From positions 1,440,001 through 1,472,000 of the forward strand of contig NC_010296.1 in NCBI RefSeq assembly GCF_000010625.1: 32,000 nucleotides of DNA, in the 5' to 3' direction. A model generated the notes under the pieces. The model was not told the origin of the DNA. It worked only from the letters and a program-made list of their open reading frames with translations, and searched no databases. This document shows positions 1,056 to 32,000 of the stretch, in pieces (position 1 is the first letter of the stretch; every line of letters starts with the position of its first letter). Origin of the DNA: Microcystis aeruginosa NIES-843. Lineage in GTDB: Bacteria; Cyanobacteriota; Cyanobacteriia; Cyanobacteriales; Microcystaceae. The position numbers and the translations under genes were made by a program.

Positions 1056-1472
1056 ATGTCTGCTAAAGATCGTTTTCATGGTGCAGTGAGAAAAGGATTA
1101 GAAAAAGAGGGTTGGATCATTACGGATGACCCTTTAAGGATTGAAGTGGGTGATGTAGAAATGTATGTCGATTTAGGAGCAGAGCAACTGATAGCCGCAG
1201 AAAAAGACAATGAAAAGATAGCCGTTGAAATTAAAAGTTTTATCGGTAAATCCAGCATTTCAGAATTTCATACTGCCATTGGACAATTCTTTAATTATCG
1301 TGTTGCTTTAGAAGAAAAAGAACCTAAAAGACAGTTATATTTAGCTGTTCCCTTAGATATTTATTATAGTTTTTTTGAATTGCGATTTATTCAAACTGTC
1401 GTTAAAAGATTTCAAATTTACCTGATTATTTATGATCCGATTGGGGAGGTAATTGTCGAATGGAAAAATTAG
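1056..1472 (+). CDS. xisH: XisH family protein (fdxN-element excision controlling factor-like)
   Basis: 138-aa ORF. MSAKDRFHGAVRKGLEKEGWIITDDPL..AAEK..IAVEIKSF matches my recollection of the XisH family N-terminus and its PD-(D/E)xK-like core. It overlaps the xisI start by 13 nt. Confidence 0.8.
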   Translation: MSAKDRFHGAVRKGLEKEGWIITDDPLRIEVGDVEMYVDLGAEQLIAAEKDNEKIAVEIKSFIGKSSISEFHTAIGQFFNYRVALEEKEPKRQLYLAVPLDIYYSFFELRFIQTVVKRFQIYLIIYDPIGEVIVEWKN

Positions 1473-1795
1473 AACAATATCGTCACTATGTCAAGCAAGT
1501 CATTACTGAATATTCTCAGATAGGTTCATCTAAAGATCCGATTGAACAACAATTGATTTTTGATACAGTTGGCGATCACTATCAATTGATGTATGTTGGC
1601 TGGAAAAATAGACGAAGATATCATGGTTGTGTTTTGCATCTCGATATTAAAAAGGGTAAAATCTGGATACAACATGATGGCACTGAGGTGGGAATTGCCA
1701 ATGAATTAGTTAATTTAGGTGTTCCTAAAGAGGATATTGTTTTAGCCTTTCATGAACCCCTAGTCAGAGAATATACAGGGTTTGCGGTGGGTTAA
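1460..1795 (+). CDS. xisI: XisI family protein
   Basis: 111-aa ORF. ..DTVGDHYQLMYVGWKNRRRYHGCVLHLDIKKGKIWIQHDGTEVGIANELVNLGVPKEDIVLAFH is typical of the XisI family. It is translationally coupled to xisH. Confidence 0.8.
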   Translation: MEKLEQYRHYVKQVITEYSQIGSSKDPIEQQLIFDTVGDHYQLMYVGWKNRRRYHGCVLHLDIKKGKIWIQHDGTEVGIANELVNLGVPKEDIVLAFHEPLVREYTGFAVG

Positions 1796-1827
1796 TCTTA
1801 ATCAGAGAAAGTTGACAACATTATTGT

Positions 1828-1873
1828 CATAAGTAGGTAGGCGTTAAAAATTATCAGACACCCCCCTTATCAA
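1828..1873. repeat. Inner part of the right inverted-repeat arm, separated from the rest of the arm by the ISAs1 insertion
   Basis: CATAAGTAGGTAGGCGTTAAAAATTATCAGACACCCCCCTTATCAA is the reverse complement of the left-arm inner end (about 965-1010) with a few mismatches. Confidence 0.8.
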
Positions 1874-3296
1874 GGTAGGGCTGTTTCATTCTCCCATCAG
1901 AATATCAAAAGTAAAAGCGATCACTGTCTTTGTAAAATGAGGAGTGACCGGCAACTTTTCAAATATATGTTGAGCTTAATAGAAAAACTGAAACAAGTCA
2001 AGGACTTTCGGAAAGATAAAGGAAAAAGACACCCTTTATGGATAGTATTAGTAGTAATAATACGGGGAACAATGCTAGGATACTCAGGTTATAGAGAGCT
2101 AGGAGAGTTTGCTAAAAATAATCGGCACAGGCTCAGTCAAGAATTTAACATAATTCCAGAAAGAGTCCCATCCTATTCAACAATTAGAAGGGTAATGATG
2201 GGAGTTGAATGGCAGATTTTGTTAAAAATGTTTAAGGAATGGGCATTACAAGAATATGGACAAAGAAGTGATATAAATTGGCTAGACATAGATGGAAAAA
2301 GTCTCAAAAACACTCTAAAGAATCCTAACAATGAACAAGAAAATTTTATTATGTTTGTCTCATTGTTTAGTCAAGAAAGTGGCTTGGTATTACACTTAAA
2401 AAGAATTGAAAACAAAAAAGGGTCTGAAATCGACGAAGGTCAAGCTATAATTGAGGATTGCACTCTTCAAAATAAAGTTTTTACTGGGGATGCTTTACAC
2501 TGTCAGAAAAAAACAATCAGCTTAATAGCCAAGAGTAAAAATGACTATGTTATCACCGTTAAAGGAAATCAGAAAAATCTTTATAAGCGAATACAAGACC
2601 TGAGTAATTCCTCAAAGCCAGAAAGTTGTTTTCTTGAACAAGACAATAGTCATGGACGAAAAATATCCAGAAAAATAGAAGTTTTTAAAGTGAGGAAAAA
2701 TGAAAGACAAGGGTTTGAAAATCTGCGCCGAATTATTAAAGTAGAAAGAAGGGGTAGTCGCGGGGATAAAACTTATGAAGAAACAGCTTACTATATCAGT
2801 AGCCTAACCGAATCCGCCCAAGTATTTGCTAAAATTATTCGAGGACATTGGAAAATAGAAAATCAGTTACATTGGGTAAAAGATGTAATTTTTGAGGAAG
2901 ATAAAAGCGAGATAAGTGATTTTCAAGCGGCCAGCAATTGGTCAATTCTCACAACTATAGGATTGAATCTTTTCAGAGGTTTGGGTTTTCTCTCAATAAC
3001 AGAGGGACAGAGGTGGTTAGCTGAACGTTGGGAAAAACTGATAGTTTTATCGACGTAAGAAGCAGAAAAATTAGCTAAATTAACAGGATGTACTCTCAGA
3101 AAATTTGAAGAGAGATAGGCTTTTAGTGGCTTGGAAACAAGCTTTATCAATTTATTCATAATCAATATTGGCAGAGGATTAAAGATTAGTTATTGTCACT
3201 AACTCTTTTGATTAGAAAAAGATAAACTTGAGAATTTTCATTCAAATTTATTGACTCAAAATCAGCTGTACTTAATTTAAATGAATCAACCCTACC
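1874..3296 (+). mobile_element. ISAs1-family insertion sequence (about 1.42 kb) with terminal IRs and 8-bp target duplication
   Basis: IRL GGTAGGGCTGTTTCATT (1874-1890) versus IRR reverse complement GGTAGGGTTGATTCATT (3280-3296). A direct repeat CTTATCAA sits on both flanks (1866-1873 and 3297-3304). A single transposase ORF lies inside. Confidence 0.8.
1937..3058 (+). CDS. ISAs1-family (H-repeat-associated type) DDE transposase
   Basis: 373-aa ORF. The N-terminus has VKDFRKDKGKRHPLWIVLVVIIRGTMLGYSGYRELGEFAKNN. The rest has IDGKSLKNT.., FTGDALHCQKKT, and a C-terminal RGHWKIENQLHWVKDVIFEEDKS motif typical of ISAs1/IS4-like transposases. Confidence 0.8.
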   Translation: MRSDRQLFKYMLSLIEKLKQVKDFRKDKGKRHPLWIVLVVIIRGTMLGYSGYRELGEFAKNNRHRLSQEFNIIPERVPSYSTIRRVMMGVEWQILLKMFKEWALQEYGQRSDINWLDIDGKSLKNTLKNPNNEQENFIMFVSLFSQESGLVLHLKRIENKKGSEIDEGQAIIEDCTLQNKVFTGDALHCQKKTISLIAKSKNDYVITVKGNQKNLYKRIQDLSNSSKPESCFLEQDNSHGRKISRKIEVFKVRKNERQGFENLRRIIKVERRGSRGDKTYEETAYYISSLTESAQVFAKIIRGHWKIENQLHWVKDVIFEEDKSEISDFQAASNWSILTTIGLNLFRGLGFLSITEGQRWLAERWEKLIVLST

Positions 3297-6966: not shown

Positions 6967-8817
6967 ATGACTACAGCAGAAGACGTTTTGCAAGTTGCCC
7001 GCCGACAAATAGGTACAAAAGAAAGTCCTCCGGGTACGAATAGTAACAAATATGGCAAGTGGTACGGCATGGACCGCGCCCCTTGGTGTGCCATGTTTGT
7101 TTCCTACTGTTTTGATAATGCCGGTTTAACCTTCAAATTCCCAAAAGATTTAGGAACGAGCAAAGGATTTGCCTATTGTCCCTATGGGGTAAAGTGGTTT
7201 AAAGACCAAGGCCGATGGCACACGGAAAACCCCCGCCCCGGCGATGTCGTCTTCTATATGTTTAATAAAAGAGGAGGGGTATCTGACCATGTGGGTATTG
7301 TGGAGAAAGTGCTAGGAAATGGTCAAATTCAAGCTATTGAAGGCAATACCAGCACTTCCAGCAACGATAACGGCGGCACCGTCATGCGACGGACAAGAAC
7401 GAGAAATCAGATTCTCGGTTACGGACGACCAGATTATAATGGCACAGCGCACACTCAAGCGGGAGAAATTACCTCTTGGGATGGAGAATATATATTTCTG
7501 ACCAGTCCCCCGATGGAATCGGAAAGTATTCGTCTCTGGCAGAAGTGCATGAAAGAACGGGGCTATCCCATCGAAGTTGATGGCGAGTATGGACCGAATT
7601 CAGAGCGAATCTGCCGAGAATTCCAAGCAAAAATGAAATTAGAAGTGGATGGTGTTATCGGTCGAGACACTTGGAACGCCTCTTGGCGACAACCCAAGCA
7701 ATCTCAAGGCAATTTATCTGTTGACCAACCCGTTGATCGCGTTCGTTATCCCCTGCACCATCCCGTACAATTTAGTGGTAGTGCCAAAAATGGTGTAGTC
7801 AAAATTCAACTCTGCACCACTTGGGGTGGGGCAGAATTTCTCCTAGGCGGAAAAGTACCCGTTATTAATGGTCAATGGCGTTCCTCCTATCAATTTCAAA
7901 CGGGTGGTGATCGCAAAATTTTTATCGAGGGACTAGATAGCAACGATCAGGTTATTGACAGCACAGATGTGATCATTAATCTCGATCCCGATGGTAATAA
8001 CGATGTGGATACTGTCCGTATTACCAGTCCCAAAATTAATCAAGAATTAGATTTAGAATCGTCAGTCATATTTGAGGGGGTTGCCGAGGATCCTCTCATC
8101 CAGACGATTAAATTGAGAACTCCCTTTGCTAATAAAAATTTCTTTTTAGGAAAAGACATCCCCGTAGATAATGGGCGTTGGCAACACGAATTTAAATTCA
8201 GCACGGGAGGCACTCGCAAAATTGTTGCAGAAGGAATTGATGCCTCTGGTCGTCTAATCGATAGTGCCGCCATTGAAATTGTTCTCAAATCCAAAGAATC
8301 GGCATCTGTTGCTGGTGTAAGCGCTCCCAATTTGCGTCGGGTTGTTGGCATAGACAAAACCTCAATTTCCTTCCGCAATAAAGTTGTTGAAATTGCTAAA
8401 GAATTGGGAGTTGATCCTAATTACCTCATGGCCGCTATGAGTTTTGAAACTGGCGGTACTTTTAGCCCTGCTATCCGCAGTTTCTCCGGTAGTGGTGCCA
8501 CGGGATTAATTCAATTTATGAGACCCACAGCCCATTCTTTAGGAACAACTACCACTGCCTTAGCGAAAATGAGTCCAGAAGAACAACTCGATTATGTTAA
8601 AAAATACTTCTGGCCTTACAGAAATCGCCTTAAAACTTTAGAAGATGTCTATATGGCAATTCTCTATCCTGCCGCTATTGGCAAGGGGCCAAATCATGTG
8701 CTTTTCCGCCAAGGTACTATCAGTTATCAGCAAAATCGAGGGTTAGATGGTCCACCAGTAAAAGGATTTGTTACTGTGGGTGATGCCACCAAAAAAGTTA
8801 GTCAAAGATTTGTGTAA
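6967..8817 (+). CDS. Multidomain peptidoglycan hydrolase: CHAP, PG_binding_1, two beta-rich repeats, C-terminal SLT/lysozyme-like domain; no signal peptide
   Basis: CHAP: NKYGKWYG..APWCAMFVSY..DHVGIVEKV..IEGNT (aa 5-155). PG binding: IRLWQKCMKERGYPIEVDGEYGPNSERICREFQAKMKLEVDGVIGRDTW (aa 186-238). Internal repeats lie at aa 259-339 and 349-440. SLT-like: LMAAMSFETGGTF..GATGLIQFMRPTA (aa 468-585). The N-terminus MTTAEDVLQVARRQ is hydrophilic. Confidence 0.8.
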   Translation: MTTAEDVLQVARRQIGTKESPPGTNSNKYGKWYGMDRAPWCAMFVSYCFDNAGLTFKFPKDLGTSKGFAYCPYGVKWFKDQGRWHTENPRPGDVVFYMFNKRGGVSDHVGIVEKVLGNGQIQAIEGNTSTSSNDNGGTVMRRTRTRNQILGYGRPDYNGTAHTQAGEITSWDGEYIFLTSPPMESESIRLWQKCMKERGYPIEVDGEYGPNSERICREFQAKMKLEVDGVIGRDTWNASWRQPKQSQGNLSVDQPVDRVRYPLHHPVQFSGSAKNGVVKIQLCTTWGGAEFLLGGKVPVINGQWRSSYQFQTGGDRKIFIEGLDSNDQVIDSTDVIINLDPDGNNDVDTVRITSPKINQELDLESSVIFEGVAEDPLIQTIKLRTPFANKNFFLGKDIPVDNGRWQHEFKFSTGGTRKIVAEGIDASGRLIDSAAIEIVLKSKESASVAGVSAPNLRRVVGIDKTSISFRNKVVEIAKELGVDPNYLMAAMSFETGGTFSPAIRSFSGSGATGLIQFMRPTAHSLGTTTTALAKMSPEEQLDYVKKYFWPYRNRLKTLEDVYMAILYPAAIGKGPNHVLFRQGTISYQQNRGLDGPPVKGFVTVGDATKKVSQRFV

Positions 8818-20992: not shown

Positions 20993-22285
20993 ATGCTCAT
21001 CGGATTTAGTGTCGGCAATTATCGCTCTTTTAAAGATGTAGTCACTCTCAGCATGGTAGCTGCGGAGGATGCCTGTGGTAATGATGAGCTTGATAAAAAT
21101 AATGTTTTTAAGGTTAATCAACAATTTAGTTTACTGAAAAGTGCCGCTATTTATGGAGCAAATGCCAGTGGTAAGAGTAATTTAATTCTGGCATTCAATT
21201 TTATGCGACGGTTTGTCATGAATTCTGCAAAATTACAAATCACTGACAAAATAGATGTGGAAGACTTTAGATTAAGTACCGAAACTGTTGATAAATCATC
21301 CTTTTTTGAAATAGTTTTTCAGCTAAAAAACAAAACTTATAGATATGGATTTGAAGTAACTCAAAAGCGAGTAGTTTCCGAATGGTTATTTTGTACGCCC
21401 AGAAGTCGTGAAACTCAAATTTTTAATCGGCAAGGCGATAAAATAGAATATAGCAAAAATATTGAACAAGGTAATATACTAAGAGGATTGACAAAAAAAA
21501 ATACTCTGTTTTTATCACTAGCGGCTCAATTTAATAATTCTCTAGCGGTGGAAATTGTCTCTTGGTTTAGTCACTTAGGTGTTGTGTCTTTTTTAGATGT
21601 GGAATTATTAAAAGCGATTACGCTTGAGCATCTTTCTAATAGACAAGATTTGATTGATGATGTGACTAAGTTAATTAAAAAATTAGATTTAAGTATTGAC
21701 AATCTCAACCTAGAAACAGAAACCAGAAAAATTTCCTTAGACAGTCTCCCGCAAGATCTACCGGATGTTGTCAGAAATATCATCAGTCACTCTAGCGGTG
21801 AAATAAAGTCCGCTACCATAAAAACCTATCATCCAAAGTATGACTCAACAGGTAAAATGATTGAGTTAGAAATTTTTGATATGGACAAACATGAATCTGA
21901 TGGAACTAAAAAGATTTTGGCTCTGTCAGCACCGATTTTAGACACTTTGCAAAGAGGGGAAGTTTTAGTAATTGATGAATTGGATGCCAGACTTCATCCT
22001 TTAATGACTAGAAATATAATCGAATTATTTAATTCTCAGAAAACTAATCCCAAAAATGCTCAACTTATTTTTACTACTCACGATATTAATTTACTTAGTC
22101 ATAAATTTTTAAGGAGGGATCAAATTTGGTTTACCGAAAAAAATCATCAAGGAGCAACAGATTTATATTCTTTGGTGGAATTTGCTGATATTAATAATAA
22201 TAATACCTTTGAAAAAGATTATATTCAAGGTCGTTATGGAGCAATACCTTTTATTGGTGATTTAAGTACAATTATTGGTAATTAG
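20993..22285 (+). CDS. AAA/ABC-type ATPase (AAA_15/AAA_21-like), AbiLi-like
   Basis: 430 aa. FSVGNYRSFKD.., Walker A GANASGKSN, Walker B VLVIDELDARLHP, H-loop-like IFTTHD, and a C-terminal YIQGRYGAIPF. This architecture is typical of the ATPase partner of RloB proteins. Confidence 0.8.
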   Translation: MLIGFSVGNYRSFKDVVTLSMVAAEDACGNDELDKNNVFKVNQQFSLLKSAAIYGANASGKSNLILAFNFMRRFVMNSAKLQITDKIDVEDFRLSTETVDKSSFFEIVFQLKNKTYRYGFEVTQKRVVSEWLFCTPRSRETQIFNRQGDKIEYSKNIEQGNILRGLTKKNTLFLSLAAQFNNSLAVEIVSWFSHLGVVSFLDVELLKAITLEHLSNRQDLIDDVTKLIKKLDLSIDNLNLETETRKISLDSLPQDLPDVVRNIISHSSGEIKSATIKTYHPKYDSTGKMIELEIFDMDKHESDGTKKILALSAPILDTLQRGEVLVIDELDARLHPLMTRNIIELFNSQKTNPKNAQLIFTTHDINLLSHKFLRRDQIWFTEKNHQGATDLYSLVEFADINNNNTFEKDYIQGRYGAIPFIGDLSTIIGN

Positions 22286-22286
22286 T

Positions 22287-22931
22287 ATGAGTAACAACAG
22301 GAATACTTCCGATTATTTGCGTCGCCAAACTAAGACTAGAGAAACAAGAAAAAGATTTTTAATTGTTTGCGAGGGAGAAAAAACTGAAGTTAACTATTTT
22401 AAGGCTTTTACTGTTCCTAAGAAAATTGCAGTTACGGTGAAAGGTGAAGGTAAAAATAGCTTGAGTTTAGTCAACAAAGCTATTCAGATTATAGATAATC
22501 TAAAACAAGATGACTCATTCGATCAAATCTGGTGTGTTTTTGATAAAGATAACTGTTCTAAAGAGCAATTTAATCAAGCAGAAGGACTGGCTAAAGAACA
22601 AAATATCAAGATTGCCTATTCTAATGAAGCTTTTGAAATTTGGTTTATTTTACACTTTCAATATCTGGATATTGCCACATCCCGAAGTGAATACCCAAAA
22701 ATTTTAAATACTCAGATGAAAAAGTGTAAATTATTAAACGAAAAAGAACAATATGCAAAAAATCGAGAGGATATGTACGAAAAATTAAAGCCATACCAGA
22801 CAACAGCAATCACTAATGCAGCAAAACTTATTCAAGATAGAGATGAAGCCAAAAAACATCCTTTTGATGCCAATCCCTCAACCACAGTACAGGAATTAGT
22901 GCAAGAACTTAACATCAATAGTCGTCCTTAA
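22287..22931 (+). CDS. RloB-like (Toprim-related) protein, AbiLii-like
   Basis: RFLIVCEGEKTEVNYFK, IWCVFDKD and AYSNEAFEIWFILHF are RloB family motifs as I recall them. The ATG is 1 nt after the ATPase stop; the track starts at an upstream TTG (22275). Confidence 0.8.
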   Translation: MSNNRNTSDYLRRQTKTRETRKRFLIVCEGEKTEVNYFKAFTVPKKIAVTVKGEGKNSLSLVNKAIQIIDNLKQDDSFDQIWCVFDKDNCSKEQFNQAEGLAKEQNIKIAYSNEAFEIWFILHFQYLDIATSRSEYPKILNTQMKKCKLLNEKEQYAKNREDMYEKLKPYQTTAITNAAKLIQDRDEAKKHPFDANPSTTVQELVQELNINSRP

Positions 22932-24669: not shown

Positions 24670-27600
24670 TTAAACCCCTGTTGCGATAAATGCCGTCCAA
24701 TAATAGGGATTGGCAAAGGGATAGGGTTCACGTTTAACCGCAGCTTCTAATAAGTCTTGGAATTTTCTTCTATCCCGTTTACTTTCAAAGACTCGATCGA
24801 GTAATTGTTGGAATTTTTGACTATTTTTAATTCTGGCTAATTTTTTACTGTTCAATGTTCTTAACCATGTTTGTGTATTATTTAAAACAATGGCAATACT
24901 TCCTTGATCTTGGATAGAAATCCGTTTAAGATCGTGATAAAATTTAGTCATAAATAACGTAGTTGCTAGGGGATCTACTGTCCAAAGGGTGCTAACAACA
25001 CTAGAACTACCTGCAAATAGAAAACCACTAGGTAAACCCACATATTCATCACTAATACTATCAGCTTTACTTTCAATTATACCACTTTCACAAGCAGAAA
25101 AAGTAACTAAGCGGCATTCTCTTAAGTCAAATTTTTCAAATACTTCTGCTAGGGTTAGGTTAGCTGATTTTCCTAAATTACCTTCTGGATCTGCTAAGAA
25201 TAAAGCAGAGTCTCTAGGGGAGTCATCATCAAATTTACCATGACAGGAAAAGTGAAGACAATGGGATGCTTGTAATTCTTGACGACGGTTTTCTAGGGTT
25301 TGTTCTGATGCTTCTAATTCCCCAATAATAATGGTTTTTTCAGTGGCAAATCCTTGACTAATTCTCTCGATTTCTAGATTTGCACCTAAGAGAGGTTTTA
25401 GGTCTTTTCTGGTGGGGTTTTTAATGGCAAAAAGACGAGTAAAGTTTTCTCGCTGTGATAATTTTACCAGTTTTAAAAGTTGGCAACTGGGAACATATCC
25501 TACCCCTTTAGAAAAGCATTGATAGAGAAATTGTCCGTTTTCGATTGGTAAACAATGAAGGGGAATAATATGTAAAAACCAATGGGGAATTAGGATGAGA
25601 CGAGAGCAAGATTGAGGAATCAGTTCTAACAGTTCATCAATGTGGAGAATTTCTGAGAGTTGATTTAAACAATCATTAAGATTATTAATCCACTCGGTTT
25701 TATTATTTTCATAAGCATCACGATAATTTTTAATAAAATTAATCAATTTTTCTCGATCTTCTGCTGAAGATTGCCAAACTTTAACCCCTTTCACCTCACT
25801 ATTCCCCCCTTTTGAAGGGGGGTTAGGGGGGATCAAACCTTTTGAAGGGGGGTTAGGGGGGATCAAACCTTTTGAAGGGGGGTTAGGGGGGATCAAACCC
25901 TCATTAGTAACAATAAACGCCATAATACTATCCCCTGCAATATACCATTCTAAGATGGCAGTATCTTGATCAATTAAGGATTGAATCTCACTTAAGGGAA
26001 TGGTTTGAACTTTTTGAGTTAAGCTAAAAGTGGGATCTATGGGGGTTATTTCACGATCAATGAATTGATTTAATTCTTGTTTTAAATGATTAAGGTGAGT
26101 ATAGTCATTTAAGATGGGTTGTTTTTGTTCATCTAGGGTTAAAGTTACTCCCCGATTGCGGGTTTGTTCTTGGATCGCTAACTGTTGTTCTTCCCCAATA
26201 ATGGCACGACGGAGGCGATCTAATTCGGTAATAATAGTTGGGGGGATATTACCTTTAGGATAGATATCTCGGTCAGTAAGCAATTGGACTAGATAGCGGG
26301 TTTTGCTGCGTTCAACGTATTCTAAGGCGCGATCTGGTTGATTGAGGTTGAGATAGGATTGAACGATGCCATGATAAACATCCATTGCATCGGAGAGGAT
26401 TTCTTGTTGTCGTTGGGGGTTTAAGGCTTGGAGTCGGGTATTTTCTACTGCTTCGATGGCTAAGTTGTAGCCTTTGATGGCGGTTTCCCAGTCTTCGATC
26501 AGGTTAGCAGTAATTCCTAAGTTACGTCCTGTTCGTAAACAGTCTATGGGAAAAGCAGTCGGGGTAAATACTTCTAAAGACAGGTTATAAGCTGCAATAG
26601 CTAACTCTAGATTATCTACCCTTTCCCCAAGAATGCGATATAGATAAGCAGTCCCTAGATTATTTTGTGACTTTGCCCATTGTTCAGGAAAGCTATCACG
26701 GGTATATACTTCTAAAGACAGTTTAAAAGCTGCAATAGCTAACTCTAGATTATCTGCCTCTTCCCCAAGAATGCGATATAGATAAGCACCCCCCAGATTA
26801 TTTTGTGACCTTGCCCAATCTTCAGGAAAGGCTTCACGGGTATCTACTTCTAATGACAGATTATAAACTGAGATCGCCTTCTCTAGATTTTCAGCCTTTT
26901 CCCCTCTGATGCGATATAGATAAGCATTCCCCAGATTATTTTGTGACCTTGCCCAATTTTCAGGAAAGGCTTCACGGGTACAGACTTCTAAAGACAGGTT
27001 ATAAGCTTTAATCGCTAACTCTAGATTATCTGCCCTTTCCCCTCTGATGCGATCTGTATAAGCTAACCCCAGATTATTTTGTGTCGTTGCCCAATATTCG
27101 GGAAAAGCTTCACGGGTTCTTACTTTTAAAGACAGGTTATAAGCTGCGATGGCTAACTCTAGATTATCTGCCCTTTCCCCTCTGATGCGATTTCTATAAG
27201 CATTACCCAGATTATCTTGTGTACCTGCCCAATCTTCAGGAAAAGCTTCACGAGTGTATACTTCTAAAGACAGGTTATAAGCTTTAATCGCTAACTCTAG
27301 ATTATCTGCCCTTTCCCCTCTGATGCGATTTCTATAAGCATTACCCAGATTATTTTGTGACCTTGCCCATTCATCAGGAAAAGCTTCATGGGTATATACT
27401 TCTAATGACAGGTTATAAACTGCGATCGCTTTCTCTAGATTATCTGCCTTTTCACCTCTAATGCGAGTTCCATAAGCAGACCCCAGATTATTTTGTATCC
27501 TTGCCCAATCTTCAGGAAAAGCTTCACGGGTATATATTTCTAATGACTGGTTATAAGCTGCGATGGCTAACTCTAGATTATCTGCCCTTTCCCCTCTGAT

Positions 27601-28488
27601 GCGATATAGATAAGCATTCCCCAGATTATTTTGTGTGTTTGCCCATTCATAAGGAAAGCCATCACGGGTATATACTTCTAATGACTGGTTACAAGCTGCG
27701 ATCGCTAACTCTAGATTATCTGCCCTTTCCCCTCTAATGCGATTTCCGTAAGCAAACCCCAGATTATTTTGTATCTTTGCCCATTCATAAGGAAAGGCTT
27801 CACGGGTATAGACTTCTAAAGATAGGTTATAAGCTGCGATCGCTAACTCTAGATTATCTGCCCTTTCCCCTCTGATGCGATAATTATAAGCAGTCCCCAG
27901 ATTATTTTGTGTCATTGCCCATTGTTTAGGAAAGGCTTCACGGGTATAAACTTCTAACAGGGTGTGATAACCTGTAATAGCAATTTCCAGATTATTAGCC
28001 CGACTTCCCAAGGGAAACTGTTTAATCTTATTACATAAATTTTGAATCACCCTAGCAATAACTGCCACATCTTCTGCCTTCCTTTGAGAAAACACATTTC
28101 TAGCGTATTGTTGCAACACTTGGGCAAAAGTATCATCTAACAGATGTTGACAGCGTTGTAGGATAGGATAAACCACCGCAGGAGCAGGATCATTACTCTC
28201 ATGTTCTGCTTGTAATAATTCTAATAAAAACTCCTGATATTCCTCTATACTTCCCGCTTGAGGGTTGAGATATTGCCCCAACTGTTGCGCCATATTCCGT
28301 AACCAAGCAACAGGATTATGATTTCCTTGTTGTTCTAACCAAGTTGCATAGTCTTCCATCACCTGCAAAAATTGGGGATCAATTAATTCCTGATTTGCTT
28401 GTAGAATATTATTGAGTTCCTCATCATCAGTACAAGCGAGCAACTTTTCTATTAAATTAACATAAGCTTGGGCGCGTTGTTCATTCAT
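24670..28488 (-). CDS. Large TPR-like repeat / CHAT-domain (caspase-like protease fold) protein with a conserved N-terminal ~95-aa helical module
   Basis: 1272 aa. The N-module is MNEQRAQAYVNLIEKLL..LQAE. About ten 46-aa repeats follow (W..QNNLG.AY..RIRGERADNLELAIAAYN.SLEVYTREAFP). The C-terminal CHAT domain has a His (LHFSCHGKF) and Cys (VTFSACESG) dyad. Confidence 0.9.
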   Translation of the reverse strand: MNEQRAQAYVNLIEKLLACTDDEELNNILQANQELIDPQFLQVMEDYATWLEQQGNHNPVAWLRNMAQQLGQYLNPQAGSIEEYQEFLLELLQAEHESNDPAPAVVYPILQRCQHLLDDTFAQVLQQYARNVFSQRKAEDVAVIARVIQNLCNKIKQFPLGSRANNLEIAITGYHTLLEVYTREAFPKQWAMTQNNLGTAYNYRIRGERADNLELAIAAYNLSLEVYTREAFPYEWAKIQNNLGFAYGNRIRGERADNLELAIAACNQSLEVYTRDGFPYEWANTQNNLGNAYLYRIRGERADNLELAIAAYNQSLEIYTREAFPEDWARIQNNLGSAYGTRIRGEKADNLEKAIAVYNLSLEVYTHEAFPDEWARSQNNLGNAYRNRIRGERADNLELAIKAYNLSLEVYTREAFPEDWAGTQDNLGNAYRNRIRGERADNLELAIAAYNLSLKVRTREAFPEYWATTQNNLGLAYTDRIRGERADNLELAIKAYNLSLEVCTREAFPENWARSQNNLGNAYLYRIRGEKAENLEKAISVYNLSLEVDTREAFPEDWARSQNNLGGAYLYRILGEEADNLELAIAAFKLSLEVYTRDSFPEQWAKSQNNLGTAYLYRILGERVDNLELAIAAYNLSLEVFTPTAFPIDCLRTGRNLGITANLIEDWETAIKGYNLAIEAVENTRLQALNPQRQQEILSDAMDVYHGIVQSYLNLNQPDRALEYVERSKTRYLVQLLTDRDIYPKGNIPPTIITELDRLRRAIIGEEQQLAIQEQTRNRGVTLTLDEQKQPILNDYTHLNHLKQELNQFIDREITPIDPTFSLTQKVQTIPLSEIQSLIDQDTAILEWYIAGDSIMAFIVTNEGLIPPNPPSKGLIPPNPPSKGLIPPNPPSKGGNSEVKGVKVWQSSAEDREKLINFIKNYRDAYENNKTEWINNLNDCLNQLSEILHIDELLELIPQSCSRLILIPHWFLHIIPLHCLPIENGQFLYQCFSKGVGYVPSCQLLKLVKLSQRENFTRLFAIKNPTRKDLKPLLGANLEIERISQGFATEKTIIIGELEASEQTLENRRQELQASHCLHFSCHGKFDDDSPRDSALFLADPEGNLGKSANLTLAEVFEKFDLRECRLVTFSACESGIIESKADSISDEYVGLPSGFLFAGSSSVVSTLWTVDPLATTLFMTKFYHDLKRISIQDQGSIAIVLNNTQTWLRTLNSKKLARIKNSQKFQQLLDRVFESKRDRRKFQDLLEAAVKREPYPFANPYYWTAFIATGV
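25808..25897. repeat. 30-bp x3 perfect tandem repeat inside the CHAT gene (encodes GLIPPNPPSK x3)
   Basis: CCTTTTGAAGGGGGGTTAGGGGGGATCAAA is repeated three times head to tail, in frame. Confidence 0.95.
26570..27960. repeat. About ten near-identical 138-bp tandem units (coding for the 46-aa TPR-like repeats)
   Basis: The marker CTAACTCTAG recurs at 26601 and 26739, with CCTTCTCTAG at 26877 (138-nt spacing). Long identical stretches occur between units. Confidence 0.9.
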
Positions 28489-28550
28489 TGTCTGTACTGT
28501 GATTAGAATGATTGAATGAGGGACTATGATGTTTTTTGGCGGATGACTCT

Positions 28551-28556
28551 ATTATA
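28551..28556 (-). promoter_or_regulatory. Candidate -10 box (TATAAT on the minus strand) for the CHAT gene
   Basis: ATTATA on the plus strand lies 63 nt upstream of the ATG. I saw no good -35. Confidence 0.25.
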
Positions 28557-28613
28557 GGATGAGTCCCCTTGATATAGGGCGATTATGACACAGAATGCTA
28601 TAGAGGATATTAA

Positions 28614-28835
28614 CTATAAACGCTCAAACTCATCAACCCTTAATCCCGCTTGCCTTAAAATACTGCTAATTGTACCGATTGTTACCTCCTTATAACAGGG
28701 AACAATCGTTGTCATTTTTCCTTCGGGAGTATCCTTGGCAAACTTAACATGACTCCCCTTTTGACTAATAACTTCAAACCCTGCCGCTTCCAACTTGCGT
28801 TTAATCTCACGATAAGATAAAGGCTTAAGCGGCAT
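28614..28835 (-). CDS. hicA: HicA-family toxin (mRNA interferase)
   Basis: 73 aa. SYREIKRKLEAAGFEVISQKGSHVKF is a typical HicA/YcfA motif. It overlaps the upstream hicB. Confidence 0.85.
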   Translation of the reverse strand: MPLKPLSYREIKRKLEAAGFEVISQKGSHVKFAKDTPEGKMTTIVPCYKEVTIGTISSILRQAGLRVDEFERL

Positions 28836-29031
28836 TGATTTCTACCTCTATCTTCTGTAATTGGGGAATAACTGTCGCACAAGGCGGTTCAAAATGTAAT
28901 TCTAAAGCCTCTTGCAGATTGTTTAACGCCTCGGTTTCTGTTTCCCCTTGACTAGCAACATCAACCTCTAAACATTGGGCAACAAACCAATTATCTTCTT
29001 GAAAAATTCTCGCTGTAAGTACCTGTCTCAT
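28825..29031 (-). CDS. hicB: HicB-family antitoxin (UPF0150-like)
   Basis: MRQVLTARIFQEDNWFVAQCLEVDVASQGETETEALNNLQEALELHFE. An alternative upstream ATG is at 29058 (ORF-track start). Confidence 0.75.
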   Translation of the reverse strand: MRQVLTARIFQEDNWFVAQCLEVDVASQGETETEALNNLQEALELHFEPPCATVIPQLQKIEVEINAA

Positions 29032-29143
29032 TTTCACTTTCCTGATTGAGCTTTCCATGATTATAGGTCAGGCTAGAATGACAGTCAATTAAATAATCAT
29101 ATAGATCATGCTTTAGACTTCTACATAACAAGATTCTATACTT

Positions 29144-29215
29144 TATATCCCGTAACCAAGCAACAGGAGTATTATTTCTTTGTTCTTCTAACCCTGTTGC
29201 ATAGTCTTCCATCAT
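29144..29215 (-). pseudogene. Remnant of the CHAT-type N-terminal module (codons ~45-66) with its leader
   Basis: M-MEDYATGLEEQRNNTPVAWLR aligns to VMEDYATWLEQQGNHNPVAWLR of the CHAT protein. The first ~43 codons are deleted. After WLR the frame runs into unrelated sequence. Confidence 0.75.
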
Positions 29216-29290
29216 TGTCTGTACTGTGATTGATGTGATTATGTGATGAACTGTGATTTTTTTTGAGAGAGACCAACCTTATGATTTAAC

Positions 29291-29319
29291 GTGATACAAT
29301 AAATATTCGTGATTGTCAA
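29291..29319 (-). promoter_or_regulatory. Candidate sigma70-type promoter (TTGACA-17 nt-TATCAC) of the module leader, copy 2
   Basis: The minus strand reads TTGACAATCACGAATATTTATTGTATCAC. An identical block occurs at 31395-31423. Confidence 0.4.
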
Positions 29320-29383
29320 GGGGGGTCGCTGCCAAATTTGTTTGATATATTCCAAGTTTCTGCCTTAGAACATATCAAACAAA

Positions 29384-29698
29384 TTACTTTTCTGCACAAA
29401 TAACTGTCATTACAGCAACTTCTTTGTCCAATTGATCTCCTATTTCATCTTCAACAACGTCCAGATCGTAATCCATTTGTAATCCCAGCCAAAATCGCGG
29501 TGACATATCAAAATAACGAGCTAACCGAAGAGCTATATCCGCCGTGATACACCGCTTTCCGTGAACGATTTCGTTAATACATTGTTCAGGAACTCCAAGA
29601 GCCAGAGCTATTTGATTCTGACTAAGGTTCATTGGCTTGATAAATTCCTCTAAAAGAACCTCACCGGGATGAATTGGCATTAGTTTATCTTCATTCAT
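29384..29698 (-). CDS. higA: HigA-family antitoxin (XRE-type HTH)
   Basis: IHPGEVLLEEFIKPMNLSQNQIALALGVPEQCINEIVHGKRCITADIALRLARYF is the HigA signature. Confidence 0.88.
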   Translation of the reverse strand: MNEDKLMPIHPGEVLLEEFIKPMNLSQNQIALALGVPEQCINEIVHGKRCITADIALRLARYFDMSPRFWLGLQMDYDLDVVEDEIGDQLDKEVAVMTVICAEK

Positions 29699-29707
29699 TA
29701 TTTTACC

Positions 29708-29989
29708 TCAATGATAATCAACGATTTCTACGTCTAGAGCATCACCGTTTTGCCAGACAAAGCAAATTTGCCATTGATCGTTAACCCGAATGCTATATTG
29801 ACCTTCCCTGTCACCAACCAGACGTTCCAATCGATTTGCTGGTGGGACACGAAGATCTTGCAGGGTTTCCGCACGATTAAGCATCCGCAATTTTCGCAAT
29901 GCCACTTGTTGGATATCTAATGGCAATTTACGCGAATGTTTACGTTCAAAAACTTTTTGAGCTTCTTTATCTTTAAAGTTTTGGATCAC
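29708..29989 (-). CDS. higB: HigB-family toxin (RelE/ParE superfamily, killer protein)
   Basis: IQNFKDKEAQKVFE...LRKLRMLNRAETLQDLRVPPANRLERL.GDREGQYSIRVNDQWQICFVW. The toxin-first order is typical of higBA. Confidence 0.88.
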   Translation of the reverse strand: MIQNFKDKEAQKVFERKHSRKLPLDIQQVALRKLRMLNRAETLQDLRVPPANRLERLVGDREGQYSIRVNDQWQICFVWQNGDALDVEIVDYH

Positions 29990-30196
29990 TCTCTAAACAA
30001 TTTCTTATCCTACTTTTAAGTATATGACGTAAGGATGCTCCAATGGCAGAACTGGTTGGGGAACAGGCCAGACAGGGACTTCTGCGAATGCGTCTGGGGC
30101 CAAGATGACGCGACGACAAATGATCGCGGTAGCCTTCATGTTGGACATACTAACAACACCTTAGCCTATTGTCAATGTCCCCAACAGTTAAAAACG

Positions 30197-30447
30197 CCTC
30201 ATATTCTTCTATATTTCTCGCTTGAGGGTTGAGATATTGCCCAAAGTTTTGTGTTAAATCAATCTGTATGGTTATTATTGTATCCTTATTATTTTAACCC
30301 CGTTGCATAGTTTTCCATCACCTGCAAAAATTGAGGGTAAATTAATTCCATATTAGCTTGCAGAATATTAGTTCGTTCCTCATCATCAGCAGAAGTGAGC
30401 AACTGTTCAATTAAATTAACATAAGCTTGGGCGTGTTGTTCATTCAT
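30197..30447 (-). pseudogene. Decayed copy of the N-terminal module (frameshifts/stops) with intact start and leader
   Basis: 30300-30447 aligns to 31170-31319 by eye (…CATAGTTTTCCATCACCTGCAAAAATT…GAGCAACTGTTCAATTAAATTAACATAAGCTTGGGCG). 30197-30240 matches the module codons ~75-90. The middle part is scrambled. Confidence 0.7.
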
Positions 30448-30565
30448 TGTCTGTACTGTGATTGATCTGATTATGTGATGGATTGTGATTTTTTCGAGAG
30501 AACGACTCGATGATATTTAGATAAGCTTGGGTGCGTTTTTCGTCCATAACCTTAATCCGATGCTT

Positions 30566-30778
30566 TCACAAAAGTTTTTTAAATTCTTCAATAGACATTC
30601 CGGCACCTTTAATAATTGTTCCCATTGTATAAGCATTAATTGGATTAGCTCTGGGAATTGTTAAGATATGCTCTCCATCAGTCATTGTAATATGTTTACC
30701 CTGTCGAACAATCCTAAATCCTGCTTTTTCAAAGGCTTTAATGGCTCGTTGATGATTAATTCCGGGAAGACTAGGCAT
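30566..30778 (-). CDS. hicA: HicA-family toxin
   Basis: 70 aa. HQRAIKAFEKAGFRIVRQGKHITM..ILTIPRANPINAYTMGTIIKGAGMSIEEF. It overlaps the upstream hicB-containing ORF by 8 nt. Confidence 0.75.
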   Translation of the reverse strand: MPSLPGINHQRAIKAFEKAGFRIVRQGKHITMTDGEHILTIPRANPINAYTMGTIIKGAGMSIEEFKKLL

Positions 30779-31319
30779 GATTTAATTCAACTTCCACATA
30801 ACAAGATTCTACACCTTGATTCAATTCCTCGGCAACTTCTAAATAAGACACAATAGCATCTTGAATATTATTGAGAGCTTCTTCTTTTGTTGTACCTTGA
30901 GAAGCACAGCCGGGTAAACCGGGACACCAAACAGCATATCCTTCTTCTGTTTGCTTAAGACTGACTTTATACTGCATATTTTTATAATAATAATCGTTGT
31001 CAGTTATTATAGCACGGCCATCATTAATCTCTGCTTCTGCTTGTAATACTTCTAATAAAAACCCCTGATATTCCTCTATACTTCTCGCTTGAGGGTTGAG
31101 AAACTGCCCCAACTGTTGCGCTATGTTCCGTAACCAAGCCGCAGGATTATTATGTCCTTGTTGTTCTAACCCTGTTGCATAGTTTTCCATCACCTGCAAA
31201 AATTCGGGATCAATCAATTCCTGATTAGCTTGCAGAATCTTATTGAGTTCCTCACCATCAGCAGAAGTGAGCAACTGTTCAATTAAATTAACATAAGCTT
31301 GGGCGCGTTGTTCATTCAT
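30771..31319 (-). CDS. Fusion ORF: CHAT-type N-terminal module (aa 1-96) joined in frame to a HicB antitoxin core (aa 115-182)
   Basis: The N-terminal 95 aa differ at 17 positions (my count) from the CHAT protein N-terminus. The C-terminal MQYKVSLKQTEEGYAVWCPGLPGCASQGTTKEEALNNIQDAI is the HicB/UPF0150 signature. An internal ATG at 30977 could give a stand-alone HicB. Confidence 0.8.
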   Translation of the reverse strand: MNEQRAQAYVNLIEQLLTSADGEELNKILQANQELIDPEFLQVMENYATGLEQQGHNNPAAWLRNIAQQLGQFLNPQARSIEEYQGFLLEVLQAEAEINDGRAIITDNDYYYKNMQYKVSLKQTEEGYAVWCPGLPGCASQGTTKEEALNNIQDAIVSYLEVAEELNQGVESCYVEVELNHA

Positions 31320-31394
31320 TGTCTGTACTGTGATTGATGTGATTATGTGATGGACTGTGATTTTTTTTGAGAGAGAGCGACCTTATGATATAGT

Positions 31395-31423
31395 GTGATA
31401 CAATAAATATTCGTGATTGTCAA
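31395..31423 (-). promoter_or_regulatory. Candidate sigma70-type promoter (TTGACA-17 nt-TATCAC) of the module leader, copy 4
   Basis: The minus strand reads TTGACAATCACGAATATTTATTGTATCAC, about 75-100 nt upstream of ATG 31319. Confidence 0.4.
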
Positions 31424-31500
31424 GGACAAAGGATAACCTAATCATAGTCGATCATTCAATCATTCTAATCATAGTTTAGACATTATTAAGGAGAAGGACT

Positions 31501-31761
31501 ATGGACATCACCATTCATCTTAGCCAAGAACAAAGGGAAAAACTCGCCTACATCCAACAACATAGCGATCAGGATATCACTACCCTGCTCAATCAAGTTA
31601 TTGAGCAACAATATACCAAACTACACCCGCGTAACTCAGAGCCTCTTAAAGTGCTGAAAGAAAGCGGTTTTATTGGGTGTGGACAAGGTTCGCCCGATCT
31701 TTCTACTAACTATAAAACCATCCTCAAGGAAGAATGGTCAGCCAAACATGATTATAGTTGA
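31501..31761 (+). CDS. VapB-like antitoxin (RHH-like N-terminus)
   Basis: 86 aa with an AAGGAGAAGG SD. ITIHLSQEQREKLAYIQQH..LLNQVIEQQY, then GFIGCGQGSPDLSTNYKTIL, which is typical of cyanobacterial PIN-partner antitoxins. It overlaps the PIN gene by 14 nt. Confidence 0.65.
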   Translation: MDITIHLSQEQREKLAYIQQHSDQDITTLLNQVIEQQYTKLHPRNSEPLKVLKESGFIGCGQGSPDLSTNYKTILKEEWSAKHDYS

Positions 31762-32000
31762 TACAGGCTTCTGGTTGGCCCTCGCCAATGAGCAAGATAA
31801 TCATCATCAACAAGCACAGCTTGTAATTCAAAGATTGCGAGAACCCCTAATAACAACCTGGTGTGTTGTCACCGAAACTTGTTACCTTTTGCTAACTCGT
31901 ATCGGTAATCATGCTCAACTGCTATTTATCCAAAATTTCTTAGCAGGTGGTTTTGAAGTATTTGAATTACAATCAAATCATGTTAGACGAATGCAACAAC
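31748..32000 (+). CDS. vapC: PIN-domain toxin (VapC-like), 3' end cut by window edge
   Basis: MIIVDTGFWLALANEQDNHHQQA..ITTWCVVTETCYLL has the PIN acidic residues in their expected context. The frame is open to the window end. Confidence 0.75.
   Translation, partial: MIIVDTGFWLALANEQDNHHQQAQLVIQRLREPLITTWCVVTETCYLLLTRIGNHAQLLFIQNFLAGGFEVFELQSNHVRRMQQ

Follow-up and report, generated by a model that had tools for sequence, protein, structure and literature searches.

A HicB antitoxin in frame with the start of a TPR-CHAT gene as a probable junction product of a toxin-antitoxin cassette array in Microcystis

Analysis of a 32,000-nt stretch of the Microcystis aeruginosa NIES-843 chromosome (the window) revealed a 182-aa open reading frame (ORF) in which a copy of the start of a TPR-CHAT protease gene (the N-module) runs in frame into a HicB antitoxin. 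This ORF is most probably an accidental junction that formed, within an array of toxin-antitoxin (TA) cassettes, when a mobile hicBA cassette was captured downstream of a duplicate of the neighboring TPR-CHAT gene's 5' end. The fusion protein itself would then be of little importance, and the locus behind it would be more useful. The multi-copy TPR-CHAT gene start would act as a portable homology handle, without a visible integrase, which gathers, duplicates and reshuffles TA cassettes between Microcystis strains. Such a handle would help explain the abundance and variable placement of TA genes in Microcystis genomes, the short "hypothetical" N-module proteins and the chimeras (N-module::HicB, N-module::DUF3110) found in annotations, and the disagreement of gene callers at the D locus. 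A search of the literature retrieved no description of such an array or of an N-module::HicB protein. The positions of all features are given in Table 1, where H denotes a copy of the TPR-CHAT gene start and the letters B, C and D denote the cassettes.

Table 1. Positions of the chimeric ORF, H copies, TA cassettes and related sites (window coordinates unless another locus is named)
Feature	Position	Strand	Remarks
Chimeric ORF: N-module stub, linker and HicB	30771-31319	-	182 codons, 182 aa
H copy D, duplicate of the first ~100 TPR-CHAT codons	31020-31319	-	78/95 aa and 260/288 nt identical to the TPR-CHAT protein and gene
Duplicated leader/upstream region of copy D	31320-31425	-	93% identical to copy B leader
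Non-CHAT part of the linker (GRAIITDNDYYYKN)	30978-31019	-	AT-rich, former upstream DNA of the cargo
hicB core, 68 aa from Met115	30771-30977	-	Ancestral start of free-standing homologues
hicA toxin gene, 70 aa	30566-30778	-	PF07927, E=6e-8; GKH motif retained
13-codon N-module start remnant (MDEKRTQAYLNII)	30507-30547	-	19 nt after hicA stop
Leader and decayed H copy C	30189-30506	-	aa 1-58, then aa 53-88 in other frame; stub ORF 30289-30447
Cassette C, higB (29708-29989) and higA (29384-29698)	29384-29989	-	
Leader and 5'-deleted H copy B	29117-29321	-	Stub ORF 28991-29215
Cassette B, hicB (DUF7387 type, 28825-29058) and hicA (28614-28835)	28614-29058	-	
TPR-CHAT gene (24670-28488) and leader (28489-28613)	24670-28613	-	1272 aa, intact
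Cargo region behind N-module stub, L162	L162 1220-1928		
D junction allele sites	31020-31034; L165 7290-7345; L006 5940-5960		
Codon-7 stop sites	L002 5371; L082 42; L083 416; L086 5302; others		

Composition of the chimeric ORF

Examination of the minus strand confirmed both the ORF described in the initial annotation and the identity of its residues 1 to 95 to the start of the TPR-CHAT protein (82%). Instead of ending right at LQAE, as had been thought, the similarity extends as far as about codon 100, where AEINDG faces HESNDP and the DNA GAGAnTAATGAT is present in both genes. The linker between the N-module and HicB (AEINDGRAIITDNDYYYKN) comprises 19 aa, one more than first counted. Its non-CHAT codons (GGC CGT GCT ATA ATA ACT GAC AAC GAT TAT TAT TAT AAA AAT) are invariant among the aligned D cassettes (pi = 0), and only one of the three reading frames of the linker is open. 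In the leader of copy D, the last ~55 nt are common to the TPR-CHAT gene's own leader. A search of the leaders against Rfam gave nothing above threshold and one sub-threshold hairpin match.

A candidate extended -10 box (TGCTATAAT, 31014-31006) lies inside the linker and ends 29 nt before the internal ATG. This TGnTATAAT element may represent the cargo's own promoter, a candidate that is absent from the list of a two-box scan: the sigma-70 two-box scan upstream of Met115 returned no promoter, and the candidate internal -10 has no -35 box of the sigma-70 type with it. As the fusion ORF comes first in the window's array, after the conserved flank and the leader, it is probably transcribed and translated.

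Residues 115 to 182 constitute HicB. They begin at the internal ATG that had been noted before (30975-30977, Met115), at which the M-x-Y-x-V motif is found; the longest ORF starts 114 codons upstream, while short-form HicB proteins have about 60 to 75 aa. The 68-aa core was described as complete, and the searches agree: Pfam HicB_lk_antitox (PF15919) matched aa 122 to 172 (E=1.3e-8, 35.4 bits versus a cutoff of 27), and the solved HicB structures 6g1c and 6g1n aligned with aa 124 to 174 (E=1e-4). The window hicB and hicA genes are both full length and co-oriented, with the previously reported overlap of 8 nt (ATGCCTAG, 30771-30778). In its C-terminal 68 aa and the overlapping hicA, the locus resembles pairs of short free-standing HicB (PF15919/UPF0150) and HicA (PF07927), and like other 68-aa members the window HicB has no C-terminal DNA-binding domain. 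It differs from the free-standing form in the 114-codon in-frame upstream extension, which comes from another gene.

The identical 182-aa protein is present on the JGI contig Ga0183339_1001379, and homologues in the databases bear the name Microcystis aeruginosa. Gene callers treat related D loci differently, with 182 aa called by JGI and 68 aa by NCBI. An NCBI-annotated HicB of a related cassette (P0252) is 99% identical and was called as 68 aa.

Ancestry, distribution and integrity of the fusion

In an ancestry search, the 68-aa HicB core was compared with one genome per species, and the upstream DNA was read at each match. All close HicB homologues outside the D cassette (82 to 91% identical) were free-standing 68-aa ORFs beginning at the same Met, with an in-frame stop 1 to 10 codons upstream of it. 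They originated from Microcystis, Crocosphaera, Snowella, Gomphosphaeria, Prochloron and others. A protein search with HicB yielded 84 homologues, nearly all of 55 to 95 aa. Since the close homologues are free-standing 68-aa proteins starting from the same Met, this comparison indicates that the fusion is derived and that Met115 is the ancestral start.

A database survey for N-module::HicB proteins recovered the same fusion in Microcystis strains, and among the matches of word-index searching of ~5.8 billion proteins there was no independent fusion of this kind. The fusion with this junction was found only in Microcystis and, as one 5'-truncated copy, in Crocosphaera sp. XPORK-15E. According to the initial annotation, its absence from every other genome would have been one of the findings to refute the proposal; many Microcystis strains carry it, all with the same cassette. 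These results indicate that all fusions represent one junction of one origin and that the carriers share a cassette and are not independent inventions.

The three clusters of 182-aa proteins (P0001 to P0003) are identical from about residue 80 on, with the differences confined to the N-module. Among 16 cassettes alignable over the full N-module, the N-module part was mosaic, with a nucleotide diversity (pi) of 0.04 to 0.12 versus 0 to 0.02 from codon ~81 through hicB. Such a pattern would be expected of a cargo that spread recently while its homology arm upstream goes on recombining with resident copies. With a cargo diversity of at most 2%, there has been too little time for an open frame to signal selection.

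Comparison of the D junctions revealed three alleles: the in-frame allele of the window, a +2-nt allele (frameshift) and a -6-nt allele in Crocosphaera XPORK-15E. The in-frame allele is the commonest in the databases, with 182 member sequences in P0001 to P0003 versus a handful for the frameshifted allele. The +2-nt allele occurs in the complete genome CP191409.1, and its cluster (P0037) also includes M. aeruginosa KW. Its stub ends with ...AEDERLMMAVL and a stop inside TATAAT, and the annotation has two separate genes, for HicB (68 aa) and for HicA. The native CHAT sequence (GATGAGAG) is most closely matched by the +2-nt allele, so that a 2-nt deletion may have produced the in-frame state.

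The reading frame was followed through 21 cassettes that have this junction and enough upstream sequence. The N-module frame was full in 12 of them, stopped at codon 7 in four, and truncated or interrupted in five. HicB was intact in all 21 cassettes, including the nine with a broken N-module frame. An intact hicA was present in 13 cassettes, six of which have no intact fusion; in five of these six, HicA is identical to that of the window, and in the sixth (Crocosphaera, L006) it differs at three residues. As an intact toxin needs its antitoxin, HicB would have to come from the internal start in those six cassettes. These comparisons indicate that the N-module extension is dispensable; the antitoxin belongs with the ordinary short HicB proteins, and its extension appears to be incidental. 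Preferential preservation of the D stub left no clear sign in the counts: 12 of 21 D stubs versus 10 of 32 non-fused B and C stubs were intact (Fisher p=0.09, the samples not being independent).

The dN/dS ratio between H copies (7 synonymous and 18 nonsynonymous codon differences) was rejected as a test of selection, given that functional paralogues and H copies trade sequence with each other. A CAA-to-TAA stop at codon 7 was seen in H copies of the B, C or D cassette, depending on the strain, and appears to move between the copies by gene conversion.

The D cassette as a whole might be a decaying relic, in which neither the fusion nor the 68-aa HicB matters. This reading is highly improbable. 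Truncation of hicA after codon 9 in 8 of the 21 cassettes, an insertion sequence (IS) that interrupts hicB at its start in another strain, and the clear degradation of stubs B and C would all be expected from decay, but the HicB core is intact in 21 of 21 cassettes, the cargo is nearly invariant, and in the window the two genes are full length, with the GKH motif in HicA and the 8-nt coupling overlap in place. In the eight cassettes concerned (L083, L084, L086, L087, L088, L091, L096 and L099), hicA is cut about 30 nt in, by replacement or deletion, which leaves an orphan intact hicB.

The N-module and a possible link to the protease

The deduced TPR-CHAT protein has a CHAT domain at aa 940 to 1271 (PF12770, E=1.8e-42) with the HFSCHG and SACESG motifs (His/Cys dyad). 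The CHAT domain is preceded by a TPR array (TPR_12/TPR_10 matches), and ten tandem 138-nt (46-aa) TPR units, 65 to 85% identical at the DNA level, were delimited at window positions 26509 to 28090. These units offer scope for variation in repeat number, and the register is shifted in alignments of related strains. The segment that joins the TPR array to the CHAT domain contains three perfect tandem repeats of 30 nt (25808-25899), which encode GLIPPNPPSK three times.

For a survey of the N-module, aa 1 to 160 of the CHAT protein were compared with 1.84 billion representative proteins in a full scan. This revealed 707 clusters, mostly aligned over the whole of residues 1 to 160 and at the extreme N terminus. 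The conserved N-terminal region comprises at least 160 aa, and the fusion stub holds about 100 of them. Among 50 long N-module proteins, TPR_12 was detected in 44 and CHAT in 35, and no other effector class recurred. Pfam and NCBIfam contain no family for the N-module, the best match (DUF6884) being below cutoff. An AlphaFold2 model of CHAT aa 1 to 200 (mean pLDDT, 93.8) predicted eight helices running into the TPR array; in the fusion, the CHAT-derived part breaks off where helix 5 ends. A Foldseek search with the model of the CHAT N terminus against the PDB gave only weak generic TPR/KLC-like matches (E>0.01) and no Death-like fold. Because the N-module is near-exclusive to TPR-CHAT proteins, lacks a Pfam or NCBIfam match and has only weak Foldseek matches, we conclude that it caps the N terminus of a single protein family, is cut short in the fusion and is no promiscuous adaptor.

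The initial annotation had proposed that the shared N-domain could tether or co-regulate the two proteins, in analogy to the adaptor domains of bacterial conflict systems. The 182-aa protein would then be the real antitoxin, and its N-module would pair homotypically with the TPR-CHAT N terminus; activation of the protease would destroy HicB and free the HicA RNase, as a suicide relay from caspase-like protease to TA module. We consider such a tether unlikely. An open frame in 12 of 21 cassettes would be in keeping with it, yet the nine other cassettes and the +2-nt allele lack the fusion and have kept HicB, with an intact HicA in six of the nine. The predominance of the in-frame allele can likewise be read as selection, but the low diversity of the cargo makes the open frame too recent to carry that meaning, and all in-frame copies trace to one junction with no independent N-module::HicB among the matches. 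Although the N-module copy and the N-module of the adjacent protease share 82% identity, the copy is a fragment of a region that is essentially confined to TPR-CHAT proteins. The proposal thus found no support: the junction is single and recent, it is broken in ~40% of the cassettes, and HicB is intact in all of them. In a more specific form, the 182-aa protein is made, its N-module fragment docks on the N-terminal helices of the TPR-CHAT protein or of its many paralogues, and the protease, once activated, cleaves the antitoxin, unleashing HicA. This form is still harder to credit. If true, it would constitute a hard-wired protease-to-TA death relay derived from exon-shuffling-like recombination, and the in-frame predominance would reflect selection.

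The analogy with effector-associated or Death-like adaptors (Kaur, Aravind et al., eLife 2020; PMC8195603) is limited to the idea of a small helical N-terminal module shared by neighbors and linking them. Such adaptors involve the same complete domain on both partners, whereas the stub has ~100 of at least 160 residues. Furthermore, and in contrast to these adaptors (PMC8195603), the N-module has no such Pfam match, is not promiscuous and gave no match to a Death-like fold.

A link between protease and TA module is in itself not far-fetched, since the orthocaspase MaOC1 of M. aeruginosa cleaves the antitoxin of its neighboring, repeat-flanked TA module (Klemencic et al. 2021, PMC7935541); this is the precedent for a tether. 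At the MaOC1 locus of M. aeruginosa PCC 7806, a ParE/ParD module is flanked by 152-bp direct repeats (PMC7935541). Both loci combine a gene of a caspase-superfamily protease with TA genes bracketed by direct repeats, in the same genus (PMC7935541). They differ in the protease (C14 orthocaspase versus TPR-CHAT), in the position of the TA genes (downstream of the MaOC1 gene versus three cassettes upstream here) and in the repeats, which are noncoding and MITE-like in the MaOC1 locus and are copies of the protease gene's own start in the present one (PMC7935541). Cleavage of the antitoxin was demonstrated for MaOC1 (PMC7935541), whereas for the present locus it is hypothetical. TA modules beside a caspase-like protease thereby occur for a second time in Microcystis, and a protease-antitoxin link would be cheap to test.

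Organization and assembly of the cassette array

The alternative suggestion, simple insertion of hicBA into a truncated paralogue with translation from the internal ATG, appears essentially right but incomplete: the supposed paralogue belongs to a set of five copies of the CHAT gene start that frame three TA cassettes. Four H copies consist of leader and 5' coding sequence, and one is a 13-codon remnant; an H unit comprises a leader of ~55 to 110 nt and up to ~100 codons. The H copies interleave with the cassettes (hicBA, higBA and hicBA), all in the same orientation, and the gene order is cassette D (leader-H(1-100)-hicB-hicA), cassette C (13-codon H remnant, leader, decayed H and higB-higA), cassette B (leader, 5'-deleted H, hicB and hicA), and the leader with the intact H-TPR-CHAT gene. 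The cassette B hicBA has its own promoter-like site (TTGACT-17-TATAAT, 29088-29060). Between stub B and the second hicB, 28 nt survive from the 3' end of a D-type hicB (29117-29144; 89% identical to 30790-30817), which implies that the slot of cassette B formerly held a D-type unit. In L090 and L095, a hairpin just downstream of higA (29335-29385 in the window; perfect 14-nt arms AATTTGTTTGATAT and ATATCAAACAAATT, 23-nt loop) has an inverted loop and a changed left arm, which looks like a small inversion polymorphism.

Cassette order varies between strains. The order D-C-B-CHAT was found in the window, L003, L005 and L098, and the order B-D-(C)-CHAT in L002, L004 and L083 to L099; L002 has the left flank of the window. 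The position of the junction between H and cargo is specific to the cassette type (aa 70, 88 or ~100). In L162, the same H and ~30 nt precede a different cargo, a gene that has its own Shine-Dalgarno sequence and encodes an XhlA-like membrane protein of 93 aa. In L012 and L017, a paralogous hicBA lies out of frame behind a divergent N-module stub, upstream of another TPR-CHAT gene. Further cargos behind N-module stubs are relB-parE and a DUF3110 gene fused in frame at about aa 75 (P0077, P0091). As stub-cargo junctions were found both in frame and out of frame, this collection indicates that in-frame chimeras arise repeatedly, at about chance frequency.

At its 3' edge, cassette D is followed in all strains by an N-module ATG 19 to 22 nt beyond hicA. 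This constant edge, the single orientation of all cassettes and the recurrence of the same H and 30-nt junction ahead of two unrelated cargos (hicBA and the XhlA-like gene) could be produced by a site-specific, integron-like system in which the ~30-nt GGCCGTGCTATAATAACTGACAACGAT or the start of H is the recombinase site. Such a system is improbable here: the junction position in H varies with the cassette type, the mosaic H copies and the wandering codon-7 stop are as expected of homologous exchange or gene conversion, and no integrase or recombinase gene was found near the array, nor any integrase in the 32-kb window. An IS transposase gene and xisH/xisI, located more than 20 kb from the array, are the sole mobility genes. 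Assignment as an integron cassette array was rejected, since there is no intI integrase, the cassettes are not bounded by attC, and their bounds are copies of a gene start.

Under the favored explanation, an accidental junction, the array would have been built and reshuffled by homologous recombination between H copies. Possible routes include Campbell-type insertion and excision of circles of H plus cargo, unequal crossing-over and gene conversion. The N-module ATG always 19 to 22 nt after hicA is exactly what Campbell-type insertion of such a circle would leave, and the wandering codon-7 stop points to gene conversion among H copies. Addictive TA cargo would survive deletion by H-H loop-out and would for that reason predominate. 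In cassette D, the frame of H would merely happen to continue, stop-free and in phase, into hicB across 14 codons that were once DNA upstream of the cargo. The functional antitoxin would be the canonical 68-aa HicB from the ancestral ATG at 30977, with hicB translationally coupled to hicA through the 8-nt overlap and perhaps transcribed both from the duplicated CHAT leader and from the candidate extended -10 box in the linker. Ribosomes initiating at the N-module ATG on leader-derived transcripts would also yield the 182-aa fusion, a product that would be tolerated but not required.

Arrays of orphan toxin and immunity genes are known from Rhs, CDI and MafB loci, where the homology handle is a conserved segment within the coding sequence of the main gene. 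The present locus is similar in that displaced partial gene copies with cargo pairs pile up beside the main gene and vary by strain. In the Rhs, CDI and MafB loci, however, the handle precedes a variable C-terminal toxin and the orphans lie downstream, whereas the present array uses the 5' end of the gene as its handle, has its stubs upstream and carries unrelated TA modules that do not become part of the main protein. Chromosomal (super)integrons also carry TA cassettes, and genomic islands accrete in tandem at tRNA genes. With these the array shares its co-oriented, TA-rich composition, in which TA genes stabilize against deletion, and the flanking of every inserted unit by duplicates of the target. 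It differs from them in the lack of an integrase and of attC or att sites; the duplicated target here is ~400 nt of the start of a protein-coding gene.

The genomic context is ordinary chromosome, with recA, chlL, chlN, lytB, an AAA_21/RloB pair, an IS and xisH/xisI. The xisH/xisI pair is followed by an IS4-type DDE transposase gene (1056-3058, plus strand). The AAA_21 (AbiEii/OLD-like ATPase) and RloB genes (20993-22931, plus strand) are flanked by chlN and a PNP_UDP phosphorylase gene and represent a candidate defense module. The border of the array is formed by a divergent vapBC-like pair (31501-32000, plus strand), in which a gene for an 86-aa protein without a family match overlaps a VapC-like gene (PIN domain, E=9e-6) that continues beyond the window; the same flank borders the array in L002, L084 to L086 and L100. 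L012 carries, just upstream of a TPR-CHAT paralogue, a MITE-like element (7900-8000) whose inverted repeat GGGCGAAGCATTCGGA is the same 16-mer as in the border repeats of the MaOC1-TA locus (PMC7935541).
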